64,000 nt of DNA from Candidatus Latescibacterota bacterium (GTDB lineage Bacteria > Latescibacterota > UBA2968 > UBA8231), in contig CBDFJF010000001.1 in assembly GCA_965248265.1 (NCBI GenBank), forward strand, positions 544,001 to 608,000, in the 5' to 3' direction. The position numbers and the translations under genes are program-made. Shown piece by piece: positions 7,921 to 54,911 of the stretch. Position 1 is the first letter of the stretch. Every line of letters begins with the position of its first letter. The notes under the pieces are model-generated. The model was not told where the DNA came from. It was given only the letters and a program-made list of their open reading frames with translations, and ran no database searches.

Positions 7921-8004
7921 ATCGGACCTTACTGTTCTATTGGTTAATGCTGGAACGGTACACTGTAATTGCATGCATCAGCGCCAAGCACAGGAGGTCC
8001 ATTG

Positions 8005-17401: not shown

Positions 17402-17528
17402 CTCTTCAGTATTTTATTAACTTGTTTATTAACAACAGGTTATAATAATATGCAACCTGCTGATCGCCGAAGCAGTATTCATGCTGCGGTAACCACCTTT
17501 CCGTAAGGTACATCATTTGCTTCCCGAC

Positions 17529-37860: not shown

Positions 37861-38345
37861 GCTTCGGGAACCTGGGCGATCAGATCGTCCACCAGCTTGC
37901 GGTTGCTGTCAGCATCGATGTTGGCGTCGATAATGGCACCCGCCGCCTGCACGGCCAGGTCAGCGACTTCGCGTCGCAACTCGCCGATGGCGGCCGTCTT
38001 TTCACTCTCGATGGTACGCCGTGCCTGTTCCACGGTCTGCTGCGCTTCCGAGCGTGCCTCTTCGACAATCCCCTGACGCACCTTCTCCGCGGCCTCTCGG
38101 GCCTCGGCGATGATCTGCCGGGATTCAGCTTCAGCGCCGGCGAGCAACTTCTGATGCTCCTCCAGTGTTGACTGAGCGTCCTGGCGCGCGCGGTCAGCGC
38201 CTTCCAGCGCATCCCTGATGCGCGCCTCGCGTTCGTCCAGCGCGCCCAGCAACGGCTTCCAGACGGTGCGCTTCAGCACCAGCAGGACGACGACGAAAGT
38301 GACGATCGTCCAGACGATGAGTCCCGCGTGGGGGGTGAGTAACAT
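37857..38345 (-). CDS. atpF: Fo ATP synthase b
   Basis: GLIVWTIVTF...WKPL..ALDERE..I, coiled coil. Confidence 0.96.
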   Translation of the reverse strand: MLLTPHAGLIVWTIVTFVVVLLVLKRTVWKPLLGALDEREARIRDALEGADRARQDAQSTLEEHQKLLAGAEAESRQIIAEAREAAEKVRQGIVEEARSEAQQTVEQARRTIESEKTAAIGELRREVADLAVQAAGAIIDANIDADSNRKLVDDLIAQVPEA

Positions 38346-38777: not shown

Positions 38778-39599
38778 CTAGTGATCGGGATGAGCGGCCA
38801 TGCTGATGAACAGTGCCGAGAGCAGAGTAAAAATGAAGGCTTGGATGAAACCGATGAAAATCTCAAGCATGTAGATGGCTGCTGCGAAGGCGATGGAAAA
38901 CGGGGCCAGATAATAGCTCTTGAGCATTATGATCAGACCCAGAAAAACCAGTATCGCCACGTGTCCGGCGATCATGTTGGCGAACAGACGGATGGCCAGG
39001 GCGAACGGCTTGGACAACAGGCCCATGATTTCGATCGGAATCATGATCGGCAACAGCCAGGTAGGCATTCCAGACGGCACCAGGCTGCGACAGTAGCCGA
39101 CGAATCCGTTGTTGACGATGCCGCTGACCTGAGTGACCGTGAAGGTACACAGGGCCAGCGCCGCGGTAACGCTGATGTTGCCCGTTGCCGTGGCACTGTA
39201 GGGAAACAGGCCGATCAGATTGCAAAACAGGATGAAGAAGAAAACGGTGAGCAGGTACGGCATGTATTTGCGGCCGTCCTCGCCCATGATCGGGAGCACT
39301 ACCTCGTCACGGATGAAAAGGACCATCGCCTCGAACAGGTTGGCCAGCCCGAAGGGCACGGCTTTGGGCCTGCGGAAGGCTACGGTCAACAGCAAAATCA
39401 GCAGGCTGCTGGCCACCCACATCATCAGGACGTGTTTCGAGATGGATAAATCGATGCCGTAGATTGGAGCGAACTGCGGCAAGTTGATGTGCCCGTCGAC
39501 CCAGTTGTGGGCGTTGACGAAGGGCACGTCCAGCTGCTTGGAATCGAGGATGTGCCCGATGATATCTACTTGACCGTCTGACCCTGCGTCACCCGCCAT
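38778..39599 (-). CDS. atpB: Fo ATP synthase a
   Basis: FFILFCNLIGLFP, KPFALAIRLFANMIAGH, IQAFIFTLLS. Confidence 0.97.
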   Translation of the reverse strand: MAGDAGSDGQVDIIGHILDSKQLDVPFVNAHNWVDGHINLPQFAPIYGIDLSISKHVLMMWVASSLLILLLTVAFRRPKAVPFGLANLFEAMVLFIRDEVVLPIMGEDGRKYMPYLLTVFFFILFCNLIGLFPYSATATGNISVTAALALCTFTVTQVSGIVNNGFVGYCRSLVPSGMPTWLLPIMIPIEIMGLLSKPFALAIRLFANMIAGHVAILVFLGLIIMLKSYYLAPFSIAFAAAIYMLEIFIGFIQAFIFTLLSALFISMAAHPDH

Positions 39600-39697: not shown

Positions 39698-40033
39698 TTA
39701 TGACGCTTGATTGCTCTGGTCAACCCGAGCAGGATCGATCGGCTGTCGCCTCTCGCGCTCGTTGCGGCGCACGACCGCTACGATCTCGACGATCATAGCC
39801 AGGATGCAGGTCGTCCCCAGGCCGGCGACGAAATAGCCCGGATGGATTGGCGTCACCAGGAGCAGGATGGCGGAGGCGGCCGCCATCAGCACCAGCCGGA
39901 GCGCCATGCCTCCCAGAAACACCTTGACGAAAAGTTGCGGCCGGCTGTTCCAGGTCCACCGGATACTCAACCAAGCTATGGCCCCGTTGACGAGCGCCAG
40001 CCCGATACCACAGGCCAACCCTGCCCATATCAT
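39698..40033 (-). CDS. atpI: ATP synthase protein I-like membrane protein
   Basis: Four hydrophobic segments, GMALRL motif; ATGA overlap with upstream gene; precedes atpB. Confidence 0.75.
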   Translation of the reverse strand: MIWAGLACGIGLALVNGAIAWLSIRWTWNSRPQLFVKVFLGGMALRLVLMAAASAILLLVTPIHPGYFVAGLGTTCILAMIVEIVAVVRRNERERRQPIDPARVDQSNQAS

Positions 40034-40320
40034 TCTGTTTCCTCTCCTTTGGCTTGAGGGTCCTGGTTCGTCGCAGGCCCATCGCCGTCCTCGCTGTCTG
40101 GACGGGTCAGCATCCGGTAAAGATGGTAGAAGGCCGCCGTCGCCCCAAAGAGCATGCCGGCGATCAACAGTAAGGGAGATGTAGATAGCTTGTCGTCCAG
40201 CCACCATCCTCCGATGGTCGCGATGATGATGGTAACGGCAAACTGCAATCCCGCTCCCAGCAACAGGCCGGCCTGGGCCATGCCTGCCTGTTTCTTTGTC
40301 CGCTTGTCATCAGCGGTCAT
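40030..40320 (-). CDS. atpZ: AtpZ/AtpI family protein
   Basis: GLQFA...GGWWLDDKLSTSPLLLIAGMLFG. Confidence 0.85.
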   Translation of the reverse strand: MTADDKRTKKQAGMAQAGLLLGAGLQFAVTIIIATIGGWWLDDKLSTSPLLLIAGMLFGATAAFYHLYRMLTRPDSEDGDGPATNQDPQAKGEETE

Positions 40321-40339: not shown

Positions 40340-41752
40340 TCACCAACCGATCAAGCCGGCCTGGCGAGCGGCACTTACCAATGGTTCTGACCACACACCA
40401 CCTCCTACCGAAAACAAGAGCATCAATACCAGGGCGGCGGCGAGTGGGGGGTCGACATGGACGGCCACCGACTCGCCAGCACCGGGAGGCGATAGTACTC
40501 GGACGATCAACCGCGCATACACGTAAGCCATCAGCAGACTGTTGATCAATATGCCTAGGGCGAGCCCGCCAAAGCCGGCATCCAACACCGAACTCAATAC
40601 CCAGTAGCGGGCAGTGAATCCCATCGTCGGCGGCACCCCGACCAGCGCCAGTAGCAGGACCAGCAGCGTCCCTGCCAGCAGTGGGTGTCTACGTGCCAGG
40701 CCCAGACAGTCGTCGATCTCCAGCTCCGTTTCCCGCTGACGGCAAAGCGCCAGCAGCACGGCGCAGCAACCACATACCGCCATGCCGTAAAAGGACAGAT
40801 AGAACACAACCCCGCCACCACCGCGACTGCCCATCGCGCAGAGCCCGGCCAGGGCGTAGCCGATATGAGCGAGTGAGGCGTAGCCCAGCAGGCGCTTTAG
40901 CCGGCGCTGATTCATCGCCAGCAGATTGCCCACCGTCATCGTCAACACGGCAGCAACCCAGGTCAAGGCGACCGCATACTCCTCGACCAGGTCGAAGCCG
41001 ACGGCGCACAGGCGCATCGCCACGGCAACGGCCGAAGCCGTGCCAGCGGAGGCCAGCAGCGCCGATACCGGTGCGGGCGCGCCATGAAAAACGTCGGCAA
41101 ACCACATGTGTAAAGGGACGACGCCGATGCGGGCGCCGACAGCAACCGCGAGCAGGGCCATTCCCGCCAGCGTCAACCGGCTCACGGTGACGTCCGTACC
41201 GTGATACGCGGCGACGAGTTCCGCCAGGTCGGTCGTACCGGTCGCCCCGTACACGAGGACAAGCCCGAGAAGGAAGAACGCACTGGCGACGGCTCCCGTC
41301 ATCGCCAATCGGAGACCGGCCTCCACGGCGATCCGGCTCGACTTCCCGCAGATGATGAGAGCCTGTAGGGACAGGACAGCCAGCTCGAGACTGACAAACA
41401 GCAGCAACAGGTCATTTGCGCGCACCATCACCATCATCCCCAGCACCGAACACAACAGCAGAGGATAAAACGCCAAGCCCGGGGAATCTGTGTCTGCGCC
41501 GCGGTGGCGAGAGAGAGACATGAGGATGGTCAAGCAGGCAAAGCTCAGGATCAGGACGGTGCAGTAGGAGTAAAATTCGGCGGCGAAGCTCTGTCTGAGC
41601 GCAACGGCGAGAATGGCGAGACTACCGAAAAGACTGGTATAGCCCATGCTTGCCGTCACCCTGGAGCCCAGCGACGTAAAGAAGGCTTCGAGCAGGACCA
41701 CGGCGACGATCAGAGCTGCCAGCAGTAGCTCCGGAGTTGAGAAGAAATCCAT
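40340..41752 (-). CDS. nuoN: Divergent complex I subunit N
   Basis: LFVSLEL, EAG...GA.ASAF.L.G..L.YG.TG, VPLHMW.ADV.HGAP, TMTVGNL.A..Q..LKRLLGY.SLAHIGY, G.PPT.GF. Confidence 0.9.
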   Translation of the reverse strand: MDFFSTPELLLAALIVAVVLLEAFFTSLGSRVTASMGYTSLFGSLAILAVALRQSFAAEFYSYCTVLILSFACLTILMSLSRHRGADTDSPGLAFYPLLLCSVLGMMVMVRANDLLLLFVSLELAVLSLQALIICGKSSRIAVEAGLRLAMTGAVASAFFLLGLVLVYGATGTTDLAELVAAYHGTDVTVSRLTLAGMALLAVAVGARIGVVPLHMWFADVFHGAPAPVSALLASAGTASAVAVAMRLCAVGFDLVEEYAVALTWVAAVLTMTVGNLLAMNQRRLKRLLGYASLAHIGYALAGLCAMGSRGGGGVVFYLSFYGMAVCGCCAVLLALCRQRETELEIDDCLGLARRHPLLAGTLLVLLLALVGVPPTMGFTARYWVLSSVLDAGFGGLALGILINSLLMAYVYARLIVRVLSPPGAGESVAVHVDPPLAAALVLMLLFSVGGGVWSEPLVSAARQAGLIGW

Positions 41753-43362
41753 TAAGGATTCTCCTCGATATTGACTGGATGCTGAGTGCTGTCCGTAGTC
41801 GCCGGTGCCAGCGGAGGCGCCGACTCGTCGTTTCCAACTCTGATGACGGAATACCCGGTCGTCGGCAGCCAACCGGTGATGTGGTCGACGGCCGGTGCCG
41901 TAACCTGCACTAGTGGCGCAGGGTGGAGGCCCAGAAACAGAACCAGTCCCAGGATGGCTACCGCCATCCCGGTGAGCGCGCCCCTGGAGCCGCCGGCTCC
42001 AGTCGAGTCGGCCCCAGTTGTGGCGGACAGCAGGGTGTAGGCAGCGACTGACAACCCCAGGAGCGTTGCTACAGTGTGGCCTGGAAACGCCGCGAAGCCG
42101 GCGACCATGCACAGGATAGCTCCGCTGAACGGGGCCGATGCTGGAAAGCCGAGGAAGGCGACGACAGCACTCCACCACAGCAGCGCTTGCCATCGCCCGA
42201 TCCGCTCGCCGCCCGCGGCCAGAGAAACTGAGAGGGCAAGCGCAACCAACAGCGCCCGCACGAGACCGTGACTGAGAGCATACAGGAAACTGCCCTGGAT
42301 ACCCTCACCCGTGAGCGTCCACAGGCCCAGCAAAATGACTCCGTTGAAGCCCAGGCACAGGTAAGCCAGCCGGCGACGCAAGGAAGAGCGCTGCCCGAGA
42401 GCAAGAGCCCCACCGTACAGAGCAACCCAGGCGGCCAGTGCACCTCCCCAGTGAGCACCGATCTGCTCGACGGGTTCGGGACACAGTGGCATGGCAAACC
42501 GCAGTATCACGTAAGTGGCTATCAGGGGCCAGCCGCCAACGACCACGACCGCGACCAGCGGATTTTTCGTGCGTAGCGCCAATAGATCCACCAACCAACC
42601 ATGAAACGGCGCGATCGGCAGCTGGATGACCAGGTACAATCCGAAGGCGGCGGCGATCCACATCTGCGCCTCAGCGGGCAGCGCAAGCGTCAGCAACTGC
42701 TCTGGATCGAGTTGGGGGCTGCCTGTCTTTTGCTGAGCCGTCGAGCGCACCGACAGGGCTGCAGCCAACAGCGCCAGTGTGGCCGCGTAGTTAAAGAGGA
42801 GAAACCTCAATGCGACCCGGCGGCGCTCACTGCTGCGCACGCCACCCCCTGCCTCGTCATCCTTGGCCATACAAAGAGCGAAAAACAGAGCGAAAACGGC
42901 GGCCTGAGAGAACAGCGTCAGCAGCAGGAGGTTGGCCGCGACGAAGACGCCCTGGAGCGATGCCATAGCCACCAGCAATCCCATGCTTGCCCCCCTACCG
43001 CCGACGGAATTTGCTGACATGGCGATGAGAAACAGGAGTGGGATGACAACCAGCGCGAAGACATTGAGATGGTCGATCCCCAGCTGCAGGTCGAGGCCCA
43101 GTGAAGGCGCCCATGGTACGCTGCCGGCGACCCCCACGGCCTGCGATCCTGCTGATCCGAACAATTCAACGGTTGAGTGGAACTGTTCCGGTAGATCCAG
43201 GAAGTTGCCAACAGCCAGTAACCCTAACGCCAATTCCAGAAAGGTCACGGCCAGCAGGACCAGACGGCGGCCCTGCCCCGACGCGGGTGGCAGGAGAGCG
43301 ACAACGGCTGCGCCGATCAGAGGCACGACCACGAAACTCGACAGGATCAGGGCGGGCATCAT
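41752..43362 (-). CDS. nuoM: Highly divergent complex I subunit M
   Basis: PWAPSLG...LGID, A.RF.LF, P..PFHGWL.D, LRFAMPL.P, YGG.LA..Q, SHGL; position between nuoL and nuoN with ATGA/TAATG coupling. Confidence 0.85.
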   Translation of the reverse strand: MMPALILSSFVVVPLIGAAVVALLPPASGQGRRLVLLAVTFLELALGLLAVGNFLDLPEQFHSTVELFGSAGSQAVGVAGSVPWAPSLGLDLQLGIDHLNVFALVVIPLLFLIAMSANSVGGRGASMGLLVAMASLQGVFVAANLLLLTLFSQAAVFALFFALCMAKDDEAGGGVRSSERRRVALRFLLFNYAATLALLAAALSVRSTAQQKTGSPQLDPEQLLTLALPAEAQMWIAAAFGLYLVIQLPIAPFHGWLVDLLALRTKNPLVAVVVVGGWPLIATYVILRFAMPLCPEPVEQIGAHWGGALAAWVALYGGALALGQRSSLRRRLAYLCLGFNGVILLGLWTLTGEGIQGSFLYALSHGLVRALLVALALSVSLAAGGERIGRWQALLWWSAVVAFLGFPASAPFSGAILCMVAGFAAFPGHTVATLLGLSVAAYTLLSATTGADSTGAGGSRGALTGMAVAILGLVLFLGLHPAPLVQVTAPAVDHITGWLPTTGYSVIRVGNDESAPPLAPATTDSTQHPVNIEENP

Positions 43363-45197
43363 CGGCTCGTCAACCACACAACAGCCACAAGAGTGATGGC
43401 AGCGCTCAGCACGGCGGCCGTGACGGCCGAGGAAAAACGGCCGTCGTGCAGGGTTCCGATCAACCAACCGCAGACGCGAACGCCTGCGCCGATCCCGCGC
43501 AGGCACAGCAACTCGACGGCCACATCGACGAACGTCGATACCCGGTCCGCCAACCAACAGACGGACCGCGCAATGGCCGTGTAGAGATCGTCGAACAGCA
43601 ATCCATTTCCTAGCAGATGCCTCAGGAGGTGCGGCGGACGGCCGGTGACACCCCTGGGGCTCGGTCTCAGGCGCCCCACCAGGACCCACGCCCATCCACA
43701 TCCGGCGAGCGTGAGCACGACGCAGGCGATTCCGACCGTGGACTCCACCAGCACCGCCGAGGGCATCGCGCCGACGTCAGCGAAAGCCCGCGGGATTGCA
43801 GCCGCCAGACGGATCGGAGAAGCCTGGTGACTGATTAACATCGCAATGACAGCAAGACCGGACAGACAGGCCATGAAGGCGACAGGAACTGTGGTCGAGC
43901 CCTCGCGGATCACAGTACGGGGATTGACACCCGTGAAAATGCCGAACAGCAGGCGGAAAAGGTGGAGGGAGGTAAGCAGCACGACCAGGCTTCCCAGAAT
44001 CGCGAAGGGAGTGCTCTCTGCCGCAGCTGCCTCCAGGAACGACAGCTGCACCCAGAAACTCGCGAACGGGGGCAACACCAACACGATGGTGGCTACCAGA
44101 GTGAACCGGTACGCCGTCTTCAAGTGGACCCGCAGACCACCAAGTGTGGACAGCTCAAAGGCCGCCGAACTCGCGCGCTCGGCCAGGCCGGTGGTGAGCA
44201 GGAGTACACATTTGACACAGGTATGAATCGACAACTGCAGCAATGCCACGGCCGGCATTCCCATGGACGCGAGGGTCAGGGCGATCGCGCCCTGGCTTGA
44301 GGTGGAATAGGCCAGCGACCGGCGGGGGTCGCGAGCGGCCGCGGCACAAGCCGCCATCAGCGCGGCACCGGCCAATCCAATGCCCGACAAACCTTCCGGA
44401 GACATCAGCTGCCAGGATCGAACCAGCAGGTAGAGACCGAGCGGGACCGCGAAGACGACCTGGATGAAGGTGGCTGCCGGCGTCCCTAACGACGCGCTTC
44501 GCTCCAACCAGGGATGCAACGGCCACATGCCAGTCCGGGCAATACCAGCCACCGCAATCGACAGGCCGATGACGGCAGTTGTCGAACCCCCCAAGACCTC
44601 CACGAAGGCGACGGAACCCAGGTGCAAGAGCATGAACACGAGCGCGCTCAGGAGTCCCAGCGAGGCGAGGCCCTGGAAGACCAAAGTCCGCGCCGCGGCC
44701 GGACCGTCGCCGCGCAAACGGACCAGCAGCCAGGTCGACAACGCGACTCCCTCCCAACCGGCATACAGCATACCGTAATTGTTGGCGATCACCGCCAAGA
44801 GTGCACAGGACACTCCGAAGTGGACGACGGCGTCCTGGCGGCGCTGCTGATGGAGTTCCTCAGTCTCAAATGCCGATTTGCATACATGGACCGCCAGGTT
44901 GGTCGAGGCCACGACGAAGGCTGTGATCGCGGACATTGGATCGATGAGAAAACCGGCCGTTATGACGGTGTCCTGCCCCAGGACGATCCAGGTCATGACA
45001 TCCCAGTTTGCTGTCACCGCTGTACCGCAGCTCAAGACCAGAAGCACCAGCGCACACAGCCAGGTGAGGGCGGCAGTATTGATACCACGCATGCGCAACG
45101 CGCCTGTAGATCGCGCGCCCGCTGTGGCGACGGCTCCTGCCAGTGGCGTGAGCAGAAGACCGTATGCGGCTATTTTCGTTAGCAGAACCAACTGCAT
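43359..45197 (-). CDS. nuoL: Divergent complex I subunit L
   Basis: GFLIDPMS, ANN..MLYAGWEGV, PLHPWL, LAYST.SQ, H...K..L.L, LGGLR. Confidence 0.88.
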   Translation of the reverse strand: MQLVLLTKIAAYGLLLTPLAGAVATAGARSTGALRMRGINTAALTWLCALVLLVLSCGTAVTANWDVMTWIVLGQDTVITAGFLIDPMSAITAFVVASTNLAVHVCKSAFETEELHQQRRQDAVVHFGVSCALLAVIANNYGMLYAGWEGVALSTWLLVRLRGDGPAAARTLVFQGLASLGLLSALVFMLLHLGSVAFVEVLGGSTTAVIGLSIAVAGIARTGMWPLHPWLERSASLGTPAATFIQVVFAVPLGLYLLVRSWQLMSPEGLSGIGLAGAALMAACAAAARDPRRSLAYSTSSQGAIALTLASMGMPAVALLQLSIHTCVKCVLLLTTGLAERASSAAFELSTLGGLRVHLKTAYRFTLVATIVLVLPPFASFWVQLSFLEAAAAESTPFAILGSLVVLLTSLHLFRLLFGIFTGVNPRTVIREGSTTVPVAFMACLSGLAVIAMLISHQASPIRLAAAIPRAFADVGAMPSAVLVESTVGIACVVLTLAGCGWAWVLVGRLRPSPRGVTGRPPHLLRHLLGNGLLFDDLYTAIARSVCWLADRVSTFVDVAVELLCLRGIGAGVRVCGWLIGTLHDGRFSSAVTAAVLSAAITLVAVVWLTSR

Positions 45198-45509
45198 TTA
45201 GCCCTCGAACTCCGGCGATCGCTTGTCGAGATCGGTGTCACCACCGCGACGGTGGCGCAGGCACAGCAATGACAGCAGGACGACGGCTTGCCCTACACCG
45301 GCGGCCAACGTGATCAGGGCCATCACCTGGCCGGAATCGTCAGCATGAAAGTGTGCGAAGGCTGCGAGGGTGACGACGGCTCCCAACCCCATCAGCTGAA
45401 ACCCCAGGATGACGGCCAGAACGTTGCGCCGCAGGACGATGCCCGTTAGCCCGAGCCCGAACAGGAGCAAACCAAAAAGCGTAGTCACCTGCAGGATCGC
45501 CGCGCTCAT
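45198..45509 (-). CDS. nuoK: Divergent complex I subunit K
   Basis: LFGLGL.GIV.RRN, GQVMAL; 103 aa, 3 TM; operon position. Confidence 0.88.
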   Translation of the reverse strand: MSAAILQVTTLFGLLLFGLGLTGIVLRRNVLAVILGFQLMGLGAVVTLAAFAHFHADDSGQVMALITLAAGVGQAVVLLSLLCLRHRRGGDTDLDKRSPEFEG

Positions 45510-46093
45510 GGACCCTCCCCGGTACTGGCAGGATCATCTACCCGATTGGATTCGACAATCGCCAGCGTGGTGGCGAAAAGGACGAAGCCGATGACGATGA
45601 ATGACACCAAGTGTCTCCTCACCAGTAGACCGGTGAGTGACTCGCTATCGGCAACCACGCCATCGGCGACGATGGCGGCAGTGGTCTCCCCTTGGACGGC
45701 GACCGTTGGAGCTATCCCTGGAGTCGCCGCAATGACACCGAGCGCGACTACCAGGATTGCGGCCGCGCACAAGATCAGCCTTCGCCTCTTGGAATCCGAG
45801 GCGGCTCGCGGACCTTGCCGCGAGTGTCCCACGAGCGGAGTGCCCGATTCTTCTTGATTGACAACCATGTGACCTACGAGATAGACGGCGGCGATGACAC
45901 CACCCTGCATCAGGACTAGCCCGATGGCAACCAGTGGCGCATTCGCGAAGATCCCCACGATGCCGGCTGCGGCCAGGACCACCACGCCGAGAGCGAGAGC
46001 AGACCGAGTCACCGATCGACTGGTGGCGACGACGACGGCGGCGGCCACGGCGAGTGCTGCCAGTAACACGTACAGGACCAGACCGGAGATCAC
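45506..46093 (-). CDS. nuoJ: Highly divergent complex I subunit J
   Basis: Five hydrophobic segments, VV.TSRS.TRSAL.L, ANAPLVA; GTGA overlap with nuoH stop and ATGA overlap with nuoK. Confidence 0.78.
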   Translation of the reverse strand: MISGLVLYVLLAALAVAAAVVVATSRSVTRSALALGVVVLAAAGIVGIFANAPLVAIGLVLMQGGVIAAVYLVGHMVVNQEESGTPLVGHSRQGPRAASDSKRRRLILCAAAILVVALGVIAATPGIAPTVAVQGETTAAIVADGVVADSESLTGLLVRRHLVSFIVIGFVLFATTLAIVESNRVDDPASTGEGP

Positions 46094-47115
46094 GCGTTTG
46101 TCATCATTTTCAGGAGCCGCGAACCGACCGCTACCATCAGCAGATTGGCAAAAGCCAGCGGCAGCAGGTATTTCCAGCCGACGGTGGCTGCGCGCTCGAG
46201 TACCAGCGACGGCAGGCTCGAACGGACCCAGAGAAACAGCAGGACGACAGCGGCGGTTTTGATGACGGTTGCGCTGGCCTGCACATGCGGCACTTCCCCG
46301 TTGCCGACGAGTCCGGGAATGTGCCACCCCCCCAGGTACAGGGTGACGAGGAAGGCGCTGGCGGCTATCAGATGCACCCGCTCCGCCACCAGCATCAAGG
46401 CCAAGTGGCGGCCGCTGTAGAGGCTGCCGAGGCGGCCGCCTCTGGTCGGGTCTCGCTGGGTGAGTGGACGCCAGGGGATAATCTGCAGGAGGGCGGCGAA
46501 GCAGACGACGAAACCCAACGGTTGAACCATCAGGTTCCAGGCGAGGATGACGTGTCCGTCGATCGCTGTCTGGGCGGCGATGATCTGGTCAAAACGAGCT
46601 GTTCCGCCGGCCGTTATGACTCCGAAAACGGCGACCCCGAGCGCCAGGTAACAGCTCAGCTGGCGCGCCACCAGACGCAGTCCTCCGAAATCACGAAAGC
46701 CTCCTATTTGAGCGCGGGTTCCGGCGATCAGACCAACCTGGAGAGCGATGAAGCCCAGGGCCATGACGTAGACGACCCCCAGGCTGGTGTGCCCTCCCCA
46801 CGCCGCCAGCGCTGTCCAGAGCCCACCACCATCACTCTGGCAAAACGGAACCACGGCGAGGGCGGTGAACGAAATGGCCAACAACAGAGGGGCGGCCCAC
46901 TTGCCGCCAGCTCCAGCCGCGGCCCGTGGCGATCTCTTTGACGCCAGCTTGATCAGATCGGCTACGGGGCGCAATCCGAAACCCGCCCGCTGGCGCCTGC
47001 CCGGCGCGGTCCGGTACTCAGCGAGCATGATCGCCATGACTCCGATCGCCGTACATAACAGCAGCGCGCCGTTGGAGCCCAGCGCGTTGATGAGTGGAAG
47101 GTCCTGGAAGGCCAA
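46090..47115 (-). CDS. nuoH: Highly divergent complex I subunit H
   Basis: GLRPVADLIKL, GGLR..A.QLS, QPLGF, YSG...L...AE, TLYLGGW, KT...L.LW.R.SLP, GWK.LLPLAFANL. Confidence 0.87.
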   Translation of the reverse strand: MAFQDLPLINALGSNGALLLCTAIGVMAIMLAEYRTAPGRRQRAGFGLRPVADLIKLASKRSPRAAAGAGGKWAAPLLLAISFTALAVVPFCQSDGGGLWTALAAWGGHTSLGVVYVMALGFIALQVGLIAGTRAQIGGFRDFGGLRLVARQLSCYLALGVAVFGVITAGGTARFDQIIAAQTAIDGHVILAWNLMVQPLGFVVCFAALLQIIPWRPLTQRDPTRGGRLGSLYSGRHLALMLVAERVHLIAASAFLVTLYLGGWHIPGLVGNGEVPHVQASATVIKTAAVVLLFLWVRSSLPSLVLERAATVGWKYLLPLAFANLLMVAVGSRLLKMMTNA

Positions 47116-47116
47116 T

Positions 47117-48796
47117 TCAGTCGGTATCCGCCGGCCGCTGTCTCGACAGCCAGTCTCGTTTGTTGTGATCGTCAACGGCCAGAAAACCACGTCGTTGCAG
47201 AGCGGTGGACCATCCACCGCCGTAGGCCTGTGCGATACCTGCCGCACCGAGCCCCGCACCCGGGTCCCCCTGATTCTGATCGAGGACAGTCTCGGCTTCC
47301 GCTATGACGGAGTTCGGCGCCGCGAATCGAACCGCCACTCGTTTGAGAATCTCGATATCGTCCAGGCACCCGGGAGCGGGTCCAACGGCCTTTTGCAACC
47401 GCTGAAGGTGCCCGTCGGCGTTGGTCATGGTACCGGCTTTTTCTGGGAAACTGCATCCTGGCAGCACGACCCGCGCCAGGGCGGCCAGTTCGTCCTGCAG
47501 GATATCCAGGACGACCAGATTGTCGGCAACAGCACCCAGGGCGCTGAGCTCGATGTCGTCCGGCCGAACGCCCGGTCCCCCACCCACAACGAAGGCCGCA
47601 CCGATCAATCCCTCCTGCAGTGCTTCCACCATCTGATCCATCCCCAGCAAACTCTGGCCCAGCTCTGCCGCCACCCCTTTGATGCCATGCGAATTCGCCG
47701 CCTTGTCGCCTCGAATCGTGAATCCACTCGGGTAGATCGTGTCGCCTTCCGTAGCGAGGGACTGCCGCAAGGATATCAATTCGGTGTCCCAGCCTTGAGC
47801 AAGGCGAATCAACAGACGGGCTTCCTCGTTCGTCATCTGGCCGCCGAGTATGACTCCGATCTGCTGTCCCTGAGAGCGGCAGGCGGTAAAAGCGAGATGA
47901 ATGGCCTCGCACGCGTCCTCCCAAGATGCGACAACGTCTGCAACGCCATCAGCTGACTGGATCAGGGGATGCGTCAACCGCTCCGAACTGTGGACGTAGT
48001 GCCATCCGTGACGTCCATCATCGCACATCCAGTACTCGTTGACATCCATGTTCACGCGGGGCTTGAGTCTCTTCACCTGATCGCCGGCAACATCGATGCG
48101 GATGTTGCATCCGGAGGAACAGCCGGTGCAGATCGAGTCGACACCGCGCAATCTCCAGGCCGGCTGCAGCTGGAAACGCTTGTCGATCAGAGCACCGGCC
48201 GGACACAGATCCACGGTGTTGCCGGACAGCCGATTGTCCATCTTTGACCCGGGAAAGGTAGCGACTTCGAGGCGGTCACCTCGATCGAACATCGACAGCT
48301 CTTCCGTACCGGTGACCTCCGCGCAGAAACGGACGCAACGGGTACAATGGATGCATTTCCCCGGGTCTATGGCAACGTGATCTCCCAGATCCCGAATTTC
48401 ACTCGCGCCCTTTTCGGGAAGCACGTATGGACCGTCGCCGCCGTAGGCGAAGCTGAATTCCTGTAACTCGCACTCTCCCGAATTGTCGCACGATGGACAT
48501 TCCAATGGGTGCCGCACCAGCTGGAACTCAAGCGCTGTAGCTCGCGCCTGCCTTACGGCCTCCGATTCCGTGCGCACCACCATGCTGTCCTGTACCTGCG
48601 CATCGCACGCCGTCGTCAAACGCCAGCCGTCGTCGTCTCGCACCTCTATCGCACATAGCCGACACAGTGCCGGAGTAGACAGGGCCGGATGAAAACACAG
48701 ATGGGGGACGAAAATTTCAGCCTCGAGAGCGCCCATGAGCAGATTGGCCCCGTCCTCGATCTCCAGCGCTCTGCCGTCCCATGTTATTCGGGCCAT
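47117..48796 (-). CDS. nuoG: Complex I subunit G (short form, all Fe-S motifs present)
   Basis: PHLCFH..CRLC..TAC; HPLECPSCDNSGECELQ; CIHCTRCVRFC..DLCPAG; CTGCSSGC..MCDDG. Confidence 0.93.
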   Translation of the reverse strand: MARITWDGRALEIEDGANLLMGALEAEIFVPHLCFHPALSTPALCRLCAIEVRDDDGWRLTTACDAQVQDSMVVRTESEAVRQARATALEFQLVRHPLECPSCDNSGECELQEFSFAYGGDGPYVLPEKGASEIRDLGDHVAIDPGKCIHCTRCVRFCAEVTGTEELSMFDRGDRLEVATFPGSKMDNRLSGNTVDLCPAGALIDKRFQLQPAWRLRGVDSICTGCSSGCNIRIDVAGDQVKRLKPRVNMDVNEYWMCDDGRHGWHYVHSSERLTHPLIQSADGVADVVASWEDACEAIHLAFTACRSQGQQIGVILGGQMTNEEARLLIRLAQGWDTELISLRQSLATEGDTIYPSGFTIRGDKAANSHGIKGVAAELGQSLLGMDQMVEALQEGLIGAAFVVGGGPGVRPDDIELSALGAVADNLVVLDILQDELAALARVVLPGCSFPEKAGTMTNADGHLQRLQKAVGPAPGCLDDIEILKRVAVRFAAPNSVIAEAETVLDQNQGDPGAGLGAAGIAQAYGGGWSTALQRRGFLAVDDHNKRDWLSRQRPADTD

Positions 48797-48797
48797 G

Positions 48798-50156
48798 TTA
48801 GTAACGCACGCTTACGCTATCCGGCACCCTGAACCCGGGGTCTTTCAGCTCCTGCATTGGGCAGGCTCCTGCCGTAGCGTGCGCCTCGAATTCGGCTCTG
48901 AACGAATGGAAGAAATCCTGCACGGTCCAAGCGAAGGCGCTACCGAATCCACACAGCGCCGTGGTCTGCTCAGGCCGGAGCCGGGGGGCGATCTGACGCG
49001 CCACGGATTCGATCAGCTTCACCTCGTCGGCGTCACCCCCCTTACCCTCCTCCAGTCGTTGCAGCAACTGGAGGATCCAACTCGAGCCCTCCCTGCACGG
49101 CGCGCACTGCCCGCACGATTCCACCGCATAGAAGCGCATCATCTGGATCGCCGTGTCCACCATGCAGGTGGTATCATCCAGGACGATGACCGCGCCGTTG
49201 CCGAAGGCTCCATCGATCGGTCCTGCGCCGGGTATCGCCCATTGTTGGGGGTCGAGATCGACATCGAGCTGCTGTGGCTGCAGAACCGTCGACAGTGTGC
49301 CACCGACGATGACCGCCTTGAGCGAGCGACCATCGGGTACACCACCGGCGTAGTCGTCTACCAACTCCCTCAGCGTCGCCTCGCCCAAAGCCAGTTCGTA
49401 CAAACCTGGACGACGCACGTGCCCGCTGACACAAAACACGCACGTACCTGGATAGGCATGCGTGCCGATGGTCCTGAACTCGACCGCACCGGCTGACAGA
49501 ATGTCAGGTAGATAGGCCAGGGTGCCGACGTTGTGGACAACGGCCGGCTCGCCAAAGAGGGTGCGTGGGGACGACGCCGGTGCCGGCTCAGGTCGTCCCC
49601 CTTCGAGCCCCTGTAGCAAGGCCGATTCCTCGGCGGCAATATGGGCACCACCCCCTGGATGCACGTAGACATCCAGGTCGAAACCACTGCCGGCAATATC
49701 ACGCCCCAGCCAGTTGGCTTTGTAGGCCTCGTCTATTGCCTGGTTGATGACGGTGGTTGGACGGGCAAGTTCACCTCTCACGCATAGATAGGCGACCCGT
49801 GCGCCAAGAGCTCGGGCGGCGATGAGTATACCTTCGAGAAGGCGATGAGGTACGCGCTCCATGAGCTTGCGGTCACGAAACAGACCCGGATCGGCATCGT
49901 AGGCATTGACACACAGGTAGGGCGGCGGTGCCGACGTCATCGCCGGCTGCGCCGACCGCCGCCACTTATCCGCGACCGGCTCCCAACCGCCGCCACGACC
50001 GCGCAGACCACTGGCGGCGACTTCCTCCAGCAGCTGCTGTTGGGTCATGGCCAACGCCTTGGCCGCTCCCCGATAGCCGCCGTGGGTGAGGTAGGCCTGG
50101 ATGCCCTCGATGTCGGGGATCTCGATATTCTTGAGGAGCAGTCTGTGCTCAGCCAT
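48798..50156 (-). CDS. nuoF: Complex I subunit F with altered flavin/NADH pocket
   Basis: SGLRGRGG, DR.LME..PH.LLEG, EE.ALL..LEG, SGHVRRPG.YE, ESCGQCAPCREG, LCGFG. Confidence 0.92.
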   Translation of the reverse strand: MAEHRLLLKNIEIPDIEGIQAYLTHGGYRGAAKALAMTQQQLLEEVAASGLRGRGGGWEPVADKWRRSAQPAMTSAPPPYLCVNAYDADPGLFRDRKLMERVPHRLLEGILIAARALGARVAYLCVRGELARPTTVINQAIDEAYKANWLGRDIAGSGFDLDVYVHPGGGAHIAAEESALLQGLEGGRPEPAPASSPRTLFGEPAVVHNVGTLAYLPDILSAGAVEFRTIGTHAYPGTCVFCVSGHVRRPGLYELALGEATLRELVDDYAGGVPDGRSLKAVIVGGTLSTVLQPQQLDVDLDPQQWAIPGAGPIDGAFGNGAVIVLDDTTCMVDTAIQMMRFYAVESCGQCAPCREGSSWILQLLQRLEEGKGGDADEVKLIESVARQIAPRLRPEQTTALCGFGSAFAWTVQDFFHSFRAEFEAHATAGACPMQELKDPGFRVPDSVSVRY

Positions 50157-50160
50157 GGCC

Positions 50161-50667
50161 TCAGTCCTCGATACGCTCTACGGTACGCTCTAGTAATTGA
50201 GTCAGTTTCTCGAGACTCAGGCTTTCATGCAGCTCGTCGTCTACGAGCATCACCGGAGCCGTGCTGCAGGATGCCAGACACGGAACACGTTCGAGGGTGA
50301 AATGGCCGTCCAGGGCCGTGTCCCCCGGCTCAATGCCGAGCGCGACACGCAGTTGGCCCAGAACCGTTTCAGCACCCATCAAGCGGCAGGAGAGGCCATC
50401 GCACACCCGCAGCCGGCTTCTACCAGCCGGCTTGTCAGTCCTCAGCAGGGGATAGAAACTGGCCACGCCGGCAGCTCGAACTGGAGGTATTGCCAACAGG
50501 TCGGCCACGTGGCCGATCACAGACGGTGAGCACCAGCCCCACTCTCGCTGTGCCAGCAGCAGGACCGGAAGAAGCGCACCGCCAGCCTCGGGATAGCGCT
50601 CCCGGATGCGCTGGTACTCGGCCTCCGTGTCCGGACCGAAAGCCAATTTGTCGATGGTCTGCTCCAT
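50161..50667 (-). CDS. nuoE: Complex I subunit E
   Basis: RYP....LLPVL..AQ..WGW, VASFY, VCDGLSC, CLASCSTAP. Confidence 0.93.
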   Translation of the reverse strand: MEQTIDKLAFGPDTEAEYQRIRERYPEAGGALLPVLLLAQREWGWCSPSVIGHVADLLAIPPVRAAGVASFYPLLRTDKPAGRSRLRVCDGLSCRLMGAETVLGQLRVALGIEPGDTALDGHFTLERVPCLASCSTAPVMLVDDELHESLSLEKLTQLLERTVERIED

Positions 50668-52319
50668 CACCGGTCCATCTCCGCAGGCACCACATTGAGA
50701 CTGCACAGAGCCTGGCGCGCTTGTGCCATCGGCAGATCGGCGACCAGGCCTCCGGCGACCTGAAAGTTCAACAACGAAGGCGAGCGCAGGTGGAGCCGGT
50801 AGGGCCGGTCGGTGCCGTCTGCGCACAAGAACACGCCGAGCTCGCCATTCGGACTCTCGGTCGCTTGGTAACACTGGGCGCCCGCCGGCAGGCGAAGGCC
50901 ATGCCCCTCCGTCCACAACTGCATGTGGCGGATCATTACCTCCACGCGTTCGCGCACTTGCTCGGACGTGCCCGGAAAAACGCGGGCGTCCTCGGTGCGC
51001 CAGGCACCGGTCGGCATCGACCGCAAAGCCCGTTCGATGAGGCCGGTACTCTCCACCATCTCCTCCATGCGCACCCGGCAGCGATCCAGCGCGTCGCCGT
51101 TCGAGCCAACGGGCACCTCGAAATCCAGCTCGCCATACGCCAGGTACGGCGTCGTCTTGCGCAGATCCGACTCCGTGCCGCAGGCACGCTGGACCGGACC
51201 ACTCAAACCCCATTCGGCGGCTTCATGGGCGCTCAGCGCTGCCACTCCGTCGACCAGGTCACGCCACAGGCGATTGCCCATGAGCTGCTTGTGCAACCGT
51301 GCCACCGCAACTCGTATCGACCGCGACAAGGCCAGCGCGCAGTTCATGAAATCATCCGGAAAATCGGCTGCCTGTCCCCCGATAGCCAGTAATCCGGTAC
51401 CGGTACCCACACCTCTCAACCGACCCATCGTCTCCAGTACTGCAGCACGCAGCTGCATGGCTTGTCGCCAAACTCTGTCGGCGCCGGCCGTCTCGGTTTG
51501 GATCGACAGCCAAGCCAGGTGTCCCGCGAGGCGGGAAAGCTCGGCGATGACGACACGCTGAAAGTTGCCTCTCGGTGGCACCTCGATTCCCAGCATCGCC
51601 TCGACCGCCAGTGCGAGGGTCAAGCTGGCGGCGTGAGGGGACTGGTCGTTCAGGCGTTCGCACACAACCATGTTCTGTATACAAGTCAACGACTCGGAGA
51701 GCTTCTCGATGCCACTGTGGGCAAATCCAGGCACCGGAGCAGCACGCACCACCCGGCCGGCCACCACCTCGAGGCGCATGCGCAGTGTCGGTATCGGCGC
51801 GACCAGAGCCGCGGTGTCCGGGCCAGTTGGCACAGGATTACCGGTTTCGCCCTCACCGAGCAAGGGATAGCGCTTGCGCAGCGGGTGAACGGAGGAGGGG
51901 GAGTGCAGGATCAGGGCTCGGGTCGTGGATCTGCCGGTAAAGCGGACCCCGAACATCTCCGCCACCTCACGCTCCTGCCAGTCTGCGCCCGGAAACAGAT
52001 CGGTGACGCTGGCCAGCGTGGTTTCTTCTGGATCGAAATCAGCACTCAATTGCAAACACGCAAAGGGTGTCTGGACTGACCGCAACTGGTAGACTATCCG
52101 CAGAGGCGCCGCCTCACCGGCGAGAGCGGACAGATCGACTGCAGTCATATCTGCGAGGGTGTAGCTTCCGTCCGTCCTCAGCGAGGTGAGCACCTCGTGC
52201 ACGGCATCCGCTTCCAGTACCAGCAATGTGCGTCCAGCAACTTCACGGATCTCGGCCGTCGGAAAGTTGACATGCAAGGTGGACAGCACGGTGTCGGCCT
52301 CGGCGAGTGTTTCAGCCAT
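50667..52319 (-). CDS. nuoCD: Fused, divergent complex I subunit C/D
   Basis: C part: D.TAVD, ADWQEREVAEMFGVRF.G, HPLRKRYPL. D part: H.GIEK, AELSRL..HL, GLSGP..RA.G...DLRK..PY..Y, ESPNGELG, PYR...RSPS, EMDR. ATG 52319 overlaps nuoA. Confidence 0.92.
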   Translation of the reverse strand: MAETLAEADTVLSTLHVNFPTAEIREVAGRTLLVLEADAVHEVLTSLRTDGSYTLADMTAVDLSALAGEAAPLRIVYQLRSVQTPFACLQLSADFDPEETTLASVTDLFPGADWQEREVAEMFGVRFTGRSTTRALILHSPSSVHPLRKRYPLLGEGETGNPVPTGPDTAALVAPIPTLRMRLEVVAGRVVRAAPVPGFAHSGIEKLSESLTCIQNMVVCERLNDQSPHAASLTLALAVEAMLGIEVPPRGNFQRVVIAELSRLAGHLAWLSIQTETAGADRVWRQAMQLRAAVLETMGRLRGVGTGTGLLAIGGQAADFPDDFMNCALALSRSIRVAVARLHKQLMGNRLWRDLVDGVAALSAHEAAEWGLSGPVQRACGTESDLRKTTPYLAYGELDFEVPVGSNGDALDRCRVRMEEMVESTGLIERALRSMPTGAWRTEDARVFPGTSEQVRERVEVMIRHMQLWTEGHGLRLPAGAQCYQATESPNGELGVFLCADGTDRPYRLHLRSPSLLNFQVAGGLVADLPMAQARQALCSLNVVPAEMDR

Positions 52320-52713
52320 CGGAATCCGTGACGGGCGAGCGCTCTTCCCAGTCGAAGGCCCGTCGACGGGCAGCGTACACGAAGGCGCAGAGCAGGACGA
52401 TGATGAAAACGGCAACGACACCGAGCACGGCCGCATCACCATCCAGCAACTGATTGAACCCGAGAGCCCATGGCAACAGCAGGACGAGCCCTGCTTGAAA
52501 AACCGCTGCGATGAGCGCGATTCGGTAGAAGGGCAGGATTTGAGCCGGTGTGGACTGCGTTTGAGAGTCCCGCGCGGACGCCGTGTCATCGGCTCTATCG
52601 CGGCTGAGCAAGCGTGCCCCGAACAAGAAAGCCGCCGCAAACAGAAGGATTGCGACGGCTGAGATCACGGCAGCTGGAATTTCGATTGCGACCTCGTAGG
52701 CGGGAAGAGCCAC
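52312..52713 (-). CDS. nuoA: Highly divergent complex I subunit A
   Basis: Three TM; FYRIAL..VF....LLPWA, FVYA.RRRAFDWE; first gene of the nuo run. Confidence 0.82.
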   Translation of the reverse strand: MALPAYEVAIEIPAAVISAVAILLFAAAFLFGARLLSRDRADDTASARDSQTQSTPAQILPFYRIALIAAVFQAGLVLLLPWALGFNQLLDGDAAVLGVVAVFIIVLLCAFVYAARRRAFDWEERSPVTDSDG

Positions 52714-53060: not shown

Positions 53061-54299
53061 CTAACCGAAGTCGTCGAAGCGGATCATCTCTTCTTCCACT
53101 CCGAGCTCGTCCAGCATGTTCATCACTGCTTGCAGCATCATCGGTGGACCGCACAGATAGTACTCGATGTCTTCCGGAGCCGCGTGGGAGCTCAGATAGT
53201 GGTCGAGGACGACCTGGTGAATGAAACCCTGGTACCCGGTCCAGTTGTCTTCTGGCAGAGGCTCCGACATGGCCACATGCCACGAGAAGTTCGGGAACTC
53301 CTCGGCGATAGCCTCGAAGTGGTCCTCGTAGAACAATTCCTTGGAGGATCGAGCCCCGTACCAATACGACACCTTGCGACCGGTCCTCAAGGTGTGGAAC
53401 AGGTGAAAAATGTGCGACCGCAACGGTGCCATGCCAGCGCCGCCACCGATGTAGACCATCTCGCGCTCGGTTTCCTGGATGAAGAACTCCCCGTAGGGAC
53501 CGGAAATGGTAGCCTTGTCTCCAGCCTTCAGATTGAACACGAAGGAAGACACGATGCCGGGGTTGACCTTCATCCAGCCGCCGATGCTCGGATCGAATGG
53601 CGGCGTGGCGATACGGATGTTGAGCATGACGATGTTGCCCTCGGCCGGGTGATTCGCCATCGAGTAGGCACGAAAAACCGTATCGGCGTTCACCGTTCGC
53701 AGATCCCACACCTTGAAACGGTCCCAGTCGCCGTGAAAACGCTCGTCGACTTCGAAATCCCTGAAGGAGCACTGGAAGGACGGTACTTCTATTTGGATGA
53801 AGCCGCCGGATTCGAAATTCAGGTTCTCGCCTTCTGGTAATTTGAGGACGAGTTCCTTGATAAAGGTTGCGACGTTCTTATTGGAGATGACCTCGCATTC
53901 CCAGCGTTTGACCGAGAACACCTCGGGCGGCACTTCGATCTTCAAGCTCTCCTTGACGGCGACCTGACATGAGAGCCGATCCCCTTCGCGGGCTTCACGC
54001 TTGGTGATCTGTTCCAGCTCCGTGGCCAGAATCTCACCGCCCCCCTCGTGTATCTTCACGACACACTGGCCACAGGTACCGCCCCCACCGCATGCCGATG
54101 AAACGAAAAGCTGGTTATCTGCCAGCACGTTGAGCAGCTTGCCGCCCGCTGGCGTGGTCAGGGTGCGTTCATCGTTGATGACGATCTCGACGTCGCCGCT
54201 GGCAACCAGCTTGGAACGGGCTGCCAGGATGACGCCCACCAGCGCCAGCACGACCATCGTGAACATGCCGACACCGGCGGTTATTTCCACGGCCATCAT
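53061..54299 (-). CDS. nqrF: Na+-NQR subunit F
   Basis: [40 protein letters not shown]. Confidence 0.98.
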
Positions 54300-54907
54300 A
54301 GTTGAATACCCGAGAAGGCCATGAAGGCCATCGCCATCAGGCCAACGGTCATGAAGGTAATCCCCAGACCCCGCAGGCCGGGGGGAACGTCACTGTAGCG
54401 CATCTTCTCGCGGATACCTGCCAACGCCACGAGGGCGAGGGCCCAACCGATGCCCGACCCCAGGCCGTAGACGACGCTCTCTCCGAAGTCGTAGTCGCGT
54501 TCCACCATGAACAGCGATCCACCCAGGATGGCGCAGTTGACGGTGATCAAGGGCAGAAAAATGCCCAACGCGTTGTAGAGCTTGGGAACGTACTTGTCCA
54601 GGAACATCTCGAGAATCTGGACGCTGGCCGCGATAACGCCGATGTAGCTGATGAGACCGACGAAGGTCAGGTCGACCCCTTCCAGGCCCAGCCATACCAG
54701 CGCGTTTTCTTTGAGCAGATAGTTGTAGACGAGGTTGTTGATCGGCACGGTCAGTGTCTGTACCACGATTACAGCCACACCGAGCCCGAAGGCGGTGGAA
54801 ACTCGCTTGGAAATGGCCAGGAAGGTGCACATGCCCAGGAAGAAGGCGAGGGCGATGTTCTCGACGAAGATCGCCTTGACGAAGAGATTCAGATAGGCCT
54901 CAAACAT
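54296..54907 (-). CDS. nqrE: Na+-NQR subunit E
   Basis: [38 protein letters not shown]. Confidence 0.98.
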
Positions 54908-54911
54908 CGGC

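Follow-up and report, generated by a model that had tools for sequence, protein, structure and literature searches.

A divergent complex I gene cluster in Latescibacterota with unlinked nuoB and nuoI and replaced pump residues

Genes at the locus and elsewhere in the genome

The subject of this study is a complex I (NADH:quinone oxidoreductase, NDH-1) gene cluster of Candidatus Latescibacterota bacterium. The window, by which we mean the whole stretch of 64,000 nucleotides analysed, corresponds to G000:C1:544001-608000 in a two-contig genome of 7.32 Mb (G000). On its minus strand, positions 40340-52713 hold 11 intact, tightly coupled open reading frames (ORFs) in the order nuoA-CD-E-F-G-H-J-K-L-M-N, as seen in the ORF listing and by reading the junctions. 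Neither nuoB nor nuoI is among them.

52312-52713, minus strand: nuoA, 133 amino acids (aa), GTG start; best NCBIfam NuoA match E 5e-10, 39.8 bits against a cut-off of 155
50667-52319, minus strand: nuoCD fusion, 550 aa; NuoD model 293 bits against a cut-off of 360
50161-50667, minus strand: nuoE, 168 aa; TIGR01958 132.4 bits against a cut-off of 142.4
48798-50156, minus strand: nuoF, 452 aa; TIGR01959 378.7 bits against a cut-off of 558.65
47117-48796, minus strand: nuoG, 559 aa, short form; TIGR01973 366.7 bits against a cut-off of 470
46090-47115, minus strand: nuoH, 341 aa from an inferred TTG start; NuoH models at most 102.5 bits against cut-offs of at least 305
45506-46093, minus strand: nuoJ, 195 aa, GTG start overlapping the nuoH stop; weak NuoJ matches, E 1e-4
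45198-45509, minus strand: nuoK, 103 aa; NF004320 51.5 bits against a cut-off of 57
43359-45197, minus strand: nuoL, 612 aa, antiporter-like; NF005141 165 bits against a cut-off of 556
41752-43362, minus strand: nuoM, 536 aa, antiporter-like; TIGR01972 165.7 bits against a cut-off of 263.8
40340-41752, minus strand: nuoN, 470 aa; TIGR01770 274.8 bits against a cut-off of 332.6

Neighbouring genes overlap at A/CD (8 nt), CD/E (1 nt), H/J (4 nt, GTGA), J/K (4 nt), L/M (4 nt) and M/N (1 nt), and the remaining gaps are 4 nt (E/F), 1 nt (F/G), 1 nt (G/H) and 0 nt (K/L). Because the genes overlap at both A/CD and H/J, there is no space for a remnant of nuoB or nuoI, and reading these two junctions revealed none; internal stops are likewise absent from the locus. 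The gene order, the 11 intact coupled frames, the two overlaps and the lack of remnants had been reported in a preliminary description of this DNA, and the junction reading bears all of them out.

All 11 proteins match the corresponding NCBIfam Nuo model, yet none of the 11 reaches its curated cut-off, which confirms the deep divergence of the cluster. Among solved structures (PDB), NuoCD comes closest to complex I 49-kDa/NuoD chains (E 4.8e-66), and NuoH was placed in NADHdh clusters of the ESM Atlas, a result that confirms its family and nothing beyond. NuoG is short (559 aa), as it is in ten measured relatives (534-552 aa); its named relatives are mostly Planctomycetota, and also Poribacteria and Latescibacterota. 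A group 4 [NiFe] hydrogenase (Ech/Hyf/Mbh) was considered and rejected, as all 22 NCBIfam families listed for NuoCD are subunit C or D of Nuo, Ndh or Fpo. Hydrogenase Ni-Fe Cys motifs were looked for in alignment A1, which has no invariant Cys column at all. The gene order without B and I was also found by tblastn in four other genomes of the class, and two metagenome contigs (G-H-J) match the cluster with a NuoG identity of 74-90%; it is therefore no assembly accident.

The preliminary description held that the complex lacks exactly nuoB and nuoI. At the level of the organism this does not stand, as whole-genome hidden Markov model (HMM) searches of G000 found two Oxidored_q6 (NuoB) genes and two NuoI-like genes. 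A canonical 11-subunit cluster, A-B-C-D-H-I-J-K-L-M-N without nuoEFG, lies at G000:C1:~252000-261600, and its proteins are only about 26-34% identical to those of the window cluster. The other two genes are divergent and stand outside any nuo cluster:

C2:3819245-3819670 (G000): unlinked nuoB, 142 aa, in the order dnaJ-mrp-nuoB-prmA, with the prmA-like gene downstream
C2:3326499-3326930 (G000): unlinked nuoI, 144 aa, in the order rny-nuoI-dxr

Both are tightly coupled to their upstream neighbours. The unlinked nuoB overlaps the mrp stop codon by 1 nt (TAATG; L002, 344-1803), and the start of nuoI takes up the last base of the rny stop codon, again an overlap of 1 nt. The unlinked NuoB exceeds a curated NuoB subfamily cut-off (NF005012, 135.1 bits against 116) and keeps all four N2 cysteines; the unlinked NuoI stays below its cut-off (75.6 bits against 113.05) and keeps all eight of its cysteines. 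Together with the 11 window genes they complete a gene set for all 14 core subunits NuoA-N, in 13 genes with the fused CD.

Complex I-like enzymes of 11 subunits without NuoEFG are known from cyanobacteria (NDH-1) and many anaerobes. The canonical cluster of G000 is such an enzyme, with canonical residues, and it illustrates that modules can be gained and lost. The window locus is the opposite case: EFG is present and B and I are absent from it, and the full 13-subunit set is there once the unlinked genes are counted. A second NuoEFG set at C2:~2984000-2988000 was considered as a complex I module and rejected; it belongs instead to a NAD-type selenocysteine formate dehydrogenase (L029, G000:C2:2980000-2992000; genes at 3556-8142, minus strand). 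This enzyme has a NuoE-NuoF fusion of 586 aa, and its alpha subunit appears as two ORFs (388 and 552 aa) split by one in-frame TGA in a context resembling a selenocysteine site. Its genes are the only NuoF/G-like genes of G000 outside the window.

Unlinked nuoB and nuoI in related genomes

We searched 41 genomes, G000 included, for NuoD, NuoB and NuoI, and annotated the loci. An EFG-containing cluster without B and I occurs in 12 of the 41 (G000, G004, G005, G008, G013, G017, G019, G021, G026, G028, G030 and G040; two of the contigs end early). All 12 genomes also carry an unlinked nuoB and an unlinked nuoI, the latter adjoining rny. Within the window's family, the unlinked nuoB always lies in dnaJ-mrp-nuoB-prmA, an order kept in nine family genomes. 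An apparent deletion of nuoH/J/K in G005 and G019, where blastp gave no match, was discarded, as hydrophobic ORFs of the right size and in the right order lie between nuoG and nuoL; blastp did not retrieve nuoH/J/K in G017 either.

Neither a NuoD nor a NuoB match was obtained from 11 of the 41 genomes. Three of these 11 were examined (G002, G010, G015), and in all of them the three slots are empty: mrp adjoins prmA, rny adjoins dxr, and nqrF adjoins orf169, the last two being the flanking genes of the window cluster listed further below. G024 has no cluster and retains a 96-aa nuoB remnant in the mrp-prmA slot. G011 has both unlinked genes, and neither NuoCD nor NqrF was found there; with both missing from an assembly that is 84% complete, the region is probably unassembled. 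In G008 (a single contig), G021 and G013, the only NuoB-family match is the unlinked one and there is no canonical cluster. G008 likewise has a single nuoI match, of the orphan type, beside its single unlinked nuoB.

The distribution bears on the possibility, raised in the preliminary description, of a complex that truly works without NuoB and NuoI, rewired into a new membrane complex with Fe-S clusters and flavin. The clean overlaps at both junctions, with neither gene at the locus, and the same order in four other genomes would fit such a complex. It is nevertheless highly improbable: unlinked nuoB and nuoI with all ligands accompany the cluster in 12 of 12 genomes and are absent from the three nuo-less genomes examined, and the single nuoB and single nuoI of G008 have no other possible partner. 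In addition, orthologous clusters of the sister families have the same layout and are canonical at nearly all checked residues, and nuo operons are split in other ways as well in this lineage (G029, G032; G030).

Co-divergence points in the same direction. The retention of invariant columns in the unlinked NuoB follows that in the cluster NuoD (Spearman 0.99, n=8, the related genomes not being independent), and the coefficient is also 0.99 over the six family genomes only. A structure model of the window NuoD domain with the unlinked NuoB reached an ipSAE of 0.72 (0.72-0.73 in three runs), a level that 58 of 80 solved complexes and 2 of 110 mismatched pairs attained, and the best of three controls scored 0.00. 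The partner pLDDT was 76, and contacts agreed between runs to at least 93%. As NuoB and NuoD are a textbook pair, in which the docking of NuoB brings N2 close to the quinone site, however, this result may reflect likeness to solved complex I rather than binding. In a NuoB tree, which we take as weak support, the 13 unlinked NuoB lie on one side of a branch (SH-aLRT 80), and end branches of up to 4.5 changes per column led the tool to warn of long-branch joins. Overall, we conclude with high confidence that nuoB and nuoI of the window cluster are unlinked and not lost, and we infer that their products assemble with the cluster proteins. Since both genes co-occur and co-diverge with the cluster, the wire from NuoG to quinone, which the preliminary description ascribed to NuoI (N6a/N6b) and NuoB (N2), is not cut by gene loss.

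The position of the unlinked nuoB recalls a known assembly system. The mrp gene upstream encodes a PF10609 NUBPL iron-transfer P-loop NTPase (E 5e-99), and in mitochondria Ind1/NUBPL, a Mrp/NBP35-family Fe-S carrier, is needed for complex I assembly. The 1-nt overlap of nuoB with a NUBPL-type gene suggests, by gene position, a functional link between Mrp and NuoB. The mrp gene remains in place in the nuo-less relatives, however, and it is therefore a general Fe-S carrier and not a dedicated assembly factor.

Fragmentation of nuo operons is common in this class, with at least three different ways of splitting. In G030 (L056, L063), B and I are likewise missing from a cluster of the 11-subunit type (A-C-D-H-J-K...), and another locus has two nuoB together with one nuoI; in G029 and G032, A-B-C-D is more than 1 Mb away from H-I-J-K-L. 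EFG clusters with nuoB in place, and with nuoI too where the contig reaches, were found in G006, G020, G012 and G023. Complex I loci called "rewired" from the locus alone thus need a genome-wide check.

Two further gene orders were seen. Among 80 loci, the closest named NuoG relatives outside the class are Latescibacterota and Poribacteria clusters, and five of these records (L068, L071, L073, L076, L078) have the order A-B-(C)D-E-F-G-H-J-K-L-M(-N), with nuoI undetected between H and J. The unlinking of nuoI may thus be wider than the class. A metagenome contig (CEUS01244371.1; L163) carries A-B-CD-E-F-G, a fused CD with nuoB in place, and its NuoG is 45% identical to that of the window; this may be an intermediate gene order.

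Residues kept and lost

Each subunit was aligned with 18-26 references, comprising 17 complete clusters as well as in-cluster and 11-subunit forms, and columns at least 95% invariant in the references were treated as invariant. E. coli K-12 was added for numbering.

The Fe-S ligands are fully conserved. All 36 ligand columns (35 Cys and 1 His; 4 in NuoE, 4 in NuoF, 16 in NuoG, 4 in NuoB and 8 in NuoI) are kept, covering N1a, N3, N1b, N4, N5, N7, N6a/b and N2. NuoG retains the 15 Cys and 1 His of N1b, N4, N5 and N7 and 63 of 73 invariant columns, and NuoE the 4 N1a Cys and 10 of 11. NuoF keeps the 4 N3 Cys, but only 69 of 101 invariant columns, and the changes in its FMN/NADH pocket gather in the Gly-rich loop and nucleotide site (A65G, G66W, F67E, E93D, E95D, Y178H, and a gap at the K200 column). 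The unlinked subunits of the window genome preserve 24 of 40 (NuoB) and 14 of 19 (NuoI) invariant columns.

At the predicted quinone site and in the membrane arm the picture is different. NuoD keeps 50 of 72 invariant columns and carries H224A and Y273D, replacing the His and Tyr that bind the quinone head group, at columns that are invariant in 26 of 26 references and retained in the sister-family orthologues. NuoH has kept 23 of 56, and seven of its ten checked residues are changed (R37Y, E71R, E157Y, E216Q, E220T, E228L, R293V), with a loss of charges in the E-channel and Q cavity. In NuoA, 5 of 11 invariant columns remain and all four checked residues are replaced (K46R, E51A, D79Q, E81G); in NuoJ 4 of 8 remain, with Y59Q. 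Both membrane Glu of NuoK are lost (E36Q, E72Q), and its R25 and R26 are kept. Most carboxylates of the E-channel, which runs through NuoH, NuoA, NuoJ and NuoK, are replaced. The antiporter-like subunits have 16 of 26 checked channel residues changed, Lys often to Arg or Gln:

NuoL, 41 of 97 invariant columns: 6 of 10 checked residues changed (D178S, K229R, H254Q, H334Q, K399Q, D400L)
NuoM, 24 of 50 invariant columns: 6 of 8 checked residues changed (E144Q, K173R, K234Q, K265L, H322F, E407A)
NuoN, 25 of 40 invariant columns: 4 of 8 checked residues changed (K158R, K217R, K247T, K395R)

In the other genera of the window's family, most of the same positions are lost, often to different residues. 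From these alignments the electron wire appears intact, and the quinone site and every proton path dismantled. The preliminary description was thus right that this is not a canonical NADH:quinone proton pump, given the replaced NuoD Tyr and His, both NuoK Glu, most NuoH and NuoA carboxylates and most Lys, Glu and His of NuoL/M/N. It had set its proposal against the case of canonical nuoB and nuoI elsewhere together with conserved catalytic residues; such genes do exist elsewhere, but the catalytic residues of the window cluster are not conserved.

Like E. coli NDH-1, the window isoform fuses NuoC with NuoD and includes a homologue for each core subunit; leaving B and I aside, the gene order agrees as well, as do the 36 Fe-S ligands and the full length of NuoL/M/N. 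It differs in the unlinked nuoB and nuoI, in the 0 of 11 proteins above curated cut-offs, in a short NuoG (535-560 aa), and in the replacement of the quinone Tyr/His, both NuoK Glu and most channel Lys, Glu and His.

The closest comparison is with the sister-family clusters of G026, G028, G030 and G040. They share the layout, A-C-D-E-F-G-H-J-K-L-M-N without B and I, with nuoI adjoining rny, and in G028 and G030 orf169 and atpB lie downstream. In contrast to the window cluster, C and D are separate genes and essentially all invariant and catalytic residues are kept: in G030 and G040, respectively, 72/72 and 71/72 for NuoD, 53/56 and 56/56 for NuoH, and 95/97 and 92/97 for NuoL. The unlinked subunits of sister families are also well preserved, with 38 of 40 invariant columns in NuoB and 19 of 19 in NuoI of three f3 genomes. 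Judged by their residues, these clusters look like working complex I. As they have the same layout with the residues kept, unlinking predates the degeneration and did not cause it. One of them, in G040 (L027, ~14350-18351), is longer by about 2 kb, with a gene for a 638-aa antiporter-like protein after nuoM and before the cluster end; in its NuoN-like protein, three of the checked residues are changed (K158Q, K247T, E154T).

Selection, competing explanations and meaning

The ratio of non-synonymous to synonymous substitution rates (dN/dS, omega) between the window cluster and the metagenome relatives with 74-90% NuoG identity came to 0.04-0.09 (F), 0.13-0.19 (G), 0.18-0.30 (H) and 0.33 (J). 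A closer relative, retrieved from a public run, differs by 636 substitutions over 12,374 nt (~5% diverged), and apart from two insertions, of 6 nt and ~33 nt, it shows no indels; for the longer one, 32 letters are printed between pieces sharing one window position, and an in-frame length of 33 is our reading. Of 36 listed differences in its nuoN, 25 are synonymous and 11 non-synonymous, with 24 at third codon positions. Between G008 and G021, nine cluster genes have an omega of 0.12-0.36 (L, M and N 0.16-0.23), the unlinked nuoB 0.14 and nuoI 0.34; the controls gave 0.07 (Mrp, DnaJ, Rny), 0.22 (Dxr) and 0.29 (PrmA-like). For the canonical-looking sister-family orthologues, omega was 0.17-0.18 against 0.19 for Rny. 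Subunits of the window's family are 26-48% identical between genera with Rny at 65%, compared with 71-88% in a sister family with Rny at 78%. Selection is relaxed by a few fold, yet purifying selection is clearly present.

The degenerate state is common to six genera, whose Rny is 65-78% identical to that of the window, and is therefore old. Taken together, we consider it probable that the locus encodes most of a 13-subunit complex I derivative which assembles and conducts electrons, does not pump, has an altered donor site and uses menaquinone or another acceptor, a reading drawn from sequence comparisons.

Several points weigh against it. The functional roles of the quinone, E-channel and antiporter residues are those given in the E. 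coli literature, and four further NuoCD positions were discarded because they did not agree with the sequence of the E. coli protein. Among formerly invariant columns, only three have the same new residue in every family member (NuoA, with one family row, excluded), and these do not clearly mark out a shared new active site. Cluster omega is about 2-5 times that of Rny, Mrp and DnaJ in G008/G021, though near that of Dxr and the PrmA-like protein, and NuoL is 26% identical between G000 and G008, with Rny at 65%. Eleven of the 24 other family genomes lack the complex. In G021 (L061, 11399-15011), nuoCD (262 and 417 aa) and nuoF (62 and 416 aa) are overlapping split ORFs, either recent frameshifts or assembly indel errors in this 5-contig assembly; both the absences and the split genes are consistent with ongoing loss. 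The public runs listed with the locus include no RNA run. Finally, selection on about 2,700 membrane-arm residues is not obviously explained by anchoring alone.

Several of these observations would also be expected of a vestigial complex, functionless and drifting to loss after Nqr, and here the 11-subunit complex too, took over, its open frames being inertia. Universally invariant residues are lost on a massive scale, 11 of 24 other family genomes are without a NuoD and NuoB match, genes are split in G021 and a nuoB remnant persists in G024, and omega lies above that of the best-conserved housekeeping neighbours. We nevertheless regard this as unlikely. Three separate lineage pairs gave omega values of 0.04-0.36 instead of about 1, and all 11 ORFs over 12.4 kb are open in G000, G008, G013 and the 5% diverged relative, where only the two insertions occur. 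The Fe-S ligands are kept 36 of 36, the unlinked nuoB and nuoI are co-retained, and the spread over six genera speaks for long persistence. The same data sort out what the preliminary description had left side by side. Simple pseudogenisation, with dN/dS near 1 and frameshifted orthologues, is contradicted by the omega values, though G021 has split ORFs. Its suggestion of relaxed selection after Nqr is half supported: the elevated omega relative to Rny and Mrp and the patchy loss agree with it, whereas the low absolute omega, the intact ORFs and the complete set of ligands do not. These latter observations favour retained function, as it had also proposed, though not in the form of a new complex without B and I.

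The genes around the cluster are relevant to its possible role:

53061-55535, minus strand: nqrF, nqrE, nqrD, the end of the operon for the Na+-pumping NADH:quinone oxidoreductase (Na+-NQR, Nqr); Pfam Fer2, FAD_binding_6 and NAD_binding_1, and Rnf-Nqr twice
39698-40207, minus strand: orf169, 169 aa, no Pfam or NCBIfam match; between nuoN and atpB
38778-39599, minus strand: ATP synthase a; Pfam ATP-synt_A, E 6e-63
37857-38345, minus strand: ATP synthase b; Pfam ATP-synt_B, E 6e-33

All on the minus strand, nqrD-E-F immediately precede the cluster, and orf169 and the genes for ATP synthase subunits a and b come straight after it; the order nqr-nuo-orf169-atp is kept in six other genomes of the window's family. 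In the nuo-less relatives (n=3), nqrF is followed by orf169-atpB after about 0.6 kb. As orf169 still adjoins atpB there, it is probably a gene of the atp operon (AtpI-like?). Ten of the 11 family genomes checked yielded Nqr, the exception being an assembly 84% complete. In passages of PMC11588811, nuo is reported as present or absent among Stieleria strains, with nqr in all six genomes analysed. Neither these passages nor those of PMC4758237 describe such a layout or enzyme, and the literature searched, supplements being outside its scope, contains no description of a B/I-unlinked layout or of a bacterial complex I without pump residues.

A location between a Na+ pump operon and an ATP synthase operon could also suit an isoform that still pumps, through unconventional residues (e.g. 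Arg, Gln or His, or water wires) or with another ion. The full-length membrane arm under purifying selection (omega of L, M and N 0.16-0.23 in G008/G021) would be in line with this, as would the conservative nature of several Lys to Arg changes, with NuoN K395R in 5 of 5 and 6 of 6 family genomes compared. But both NuoK Glu, most NuoH carboxylates, NuoM E144, K234, K265 and E407, and NuoL K229 and K399 are gone, and the replacements at lost sites differ among family members. Moreover, the quinone-site Tyr and His, which start the coupling, are missing as well, and Arg is a poor proton shuttle. Pumping of this kind therefore seems improbable to us.

About equally doubtful is a sharing of modules, in which NuoEFG of the window would be the NADH-input module of the canonical 11-subunit complex and the rest dispensable or, in a variant, the cluster would borrow the canonical NuoB and NuoI. 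The canonical cluster lacks nuoEFG, the other NuoF/G-like genes of the genome all belong to the selenocysteine formate dehydrogenase, and E, F and G are the best-kept subunits (G 63/73, E 10/11; omega of F 0.04-0.09). Sharing is hard to reconcile, however, with G008, G021 and G013, which have no canonical cluster and keep the whole window-type cluster at an omega of 0.12-0.36, and with the 12 genomes of the sister family f2, in which the only NuoD match is of the 11-subunit type and a window-type cluster occurs in none. H and J are also under purifying selection in the window's own lineage.

Returning to the 13-subunit, non-pumping derivative, we picture its working as follows. Eleven genes of a second, fast-evolving NDH-1 isoform would come from the window and the other two, nuoB and nuoI, from elsewhere in the genome, and the 13 proteins would form a full L-shaped enzyme with a complete Fe-S chain. 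Once assembled in the membrane, its Fe-S wire would take electrons from a nicotinamide-type donor and deliver them to menaquinone or another acceptor without proton translocation, the membrane arm serving as an anchor or scaffold. The enzyme would operate alongside Nqr, the Na+ pump encoded directly upstream, and the ATP synthase encoded directly downstream. The absence of pumping, the residual redox activity and its acceptor are what we infer here from the residues and the gene content. More tentatively, and as a possibility that we hold with less conviction, it may be a natural "pump-dead" complex I long kept in the window's family, marine and probably planctomycete-like bacteria, for a new redox role (oxidising NADH without coupling, or serving a new acceptor at N2) or a structural one in the respiratory membrane. 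The genes of its two smallest Fe-S subunits share 1 nt with the stop codons of the housekeeping genes that precede them, and one of these housekeeping genes encodes a NUBPL-family carrier.

For this lineage, a gene missing from an operon is not a gene missing from the organism. The class offers a graded series, from canonical clusters with unlinked genes through degenerate clusters and a remnant to an empty slot, which makes the order of events tractable. In this complex I paralogue, evolution has stripped away quinone ligands, E-channel carboxylates and the lysines of the antiporter-like subunits, but all 13 proteins and the full set of Fe-S ligands are preserved by selection; mutagenesis laboratories remove such residues singly. 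If the complex is assembled, it would be a natural system for studying what the membrane arm contributes beyond pumping, how far the redox wire works uncoupled, and how a respiratory complex of this size comes to be taken apart or put to another use after a Na+-pumping Nqr has become available.

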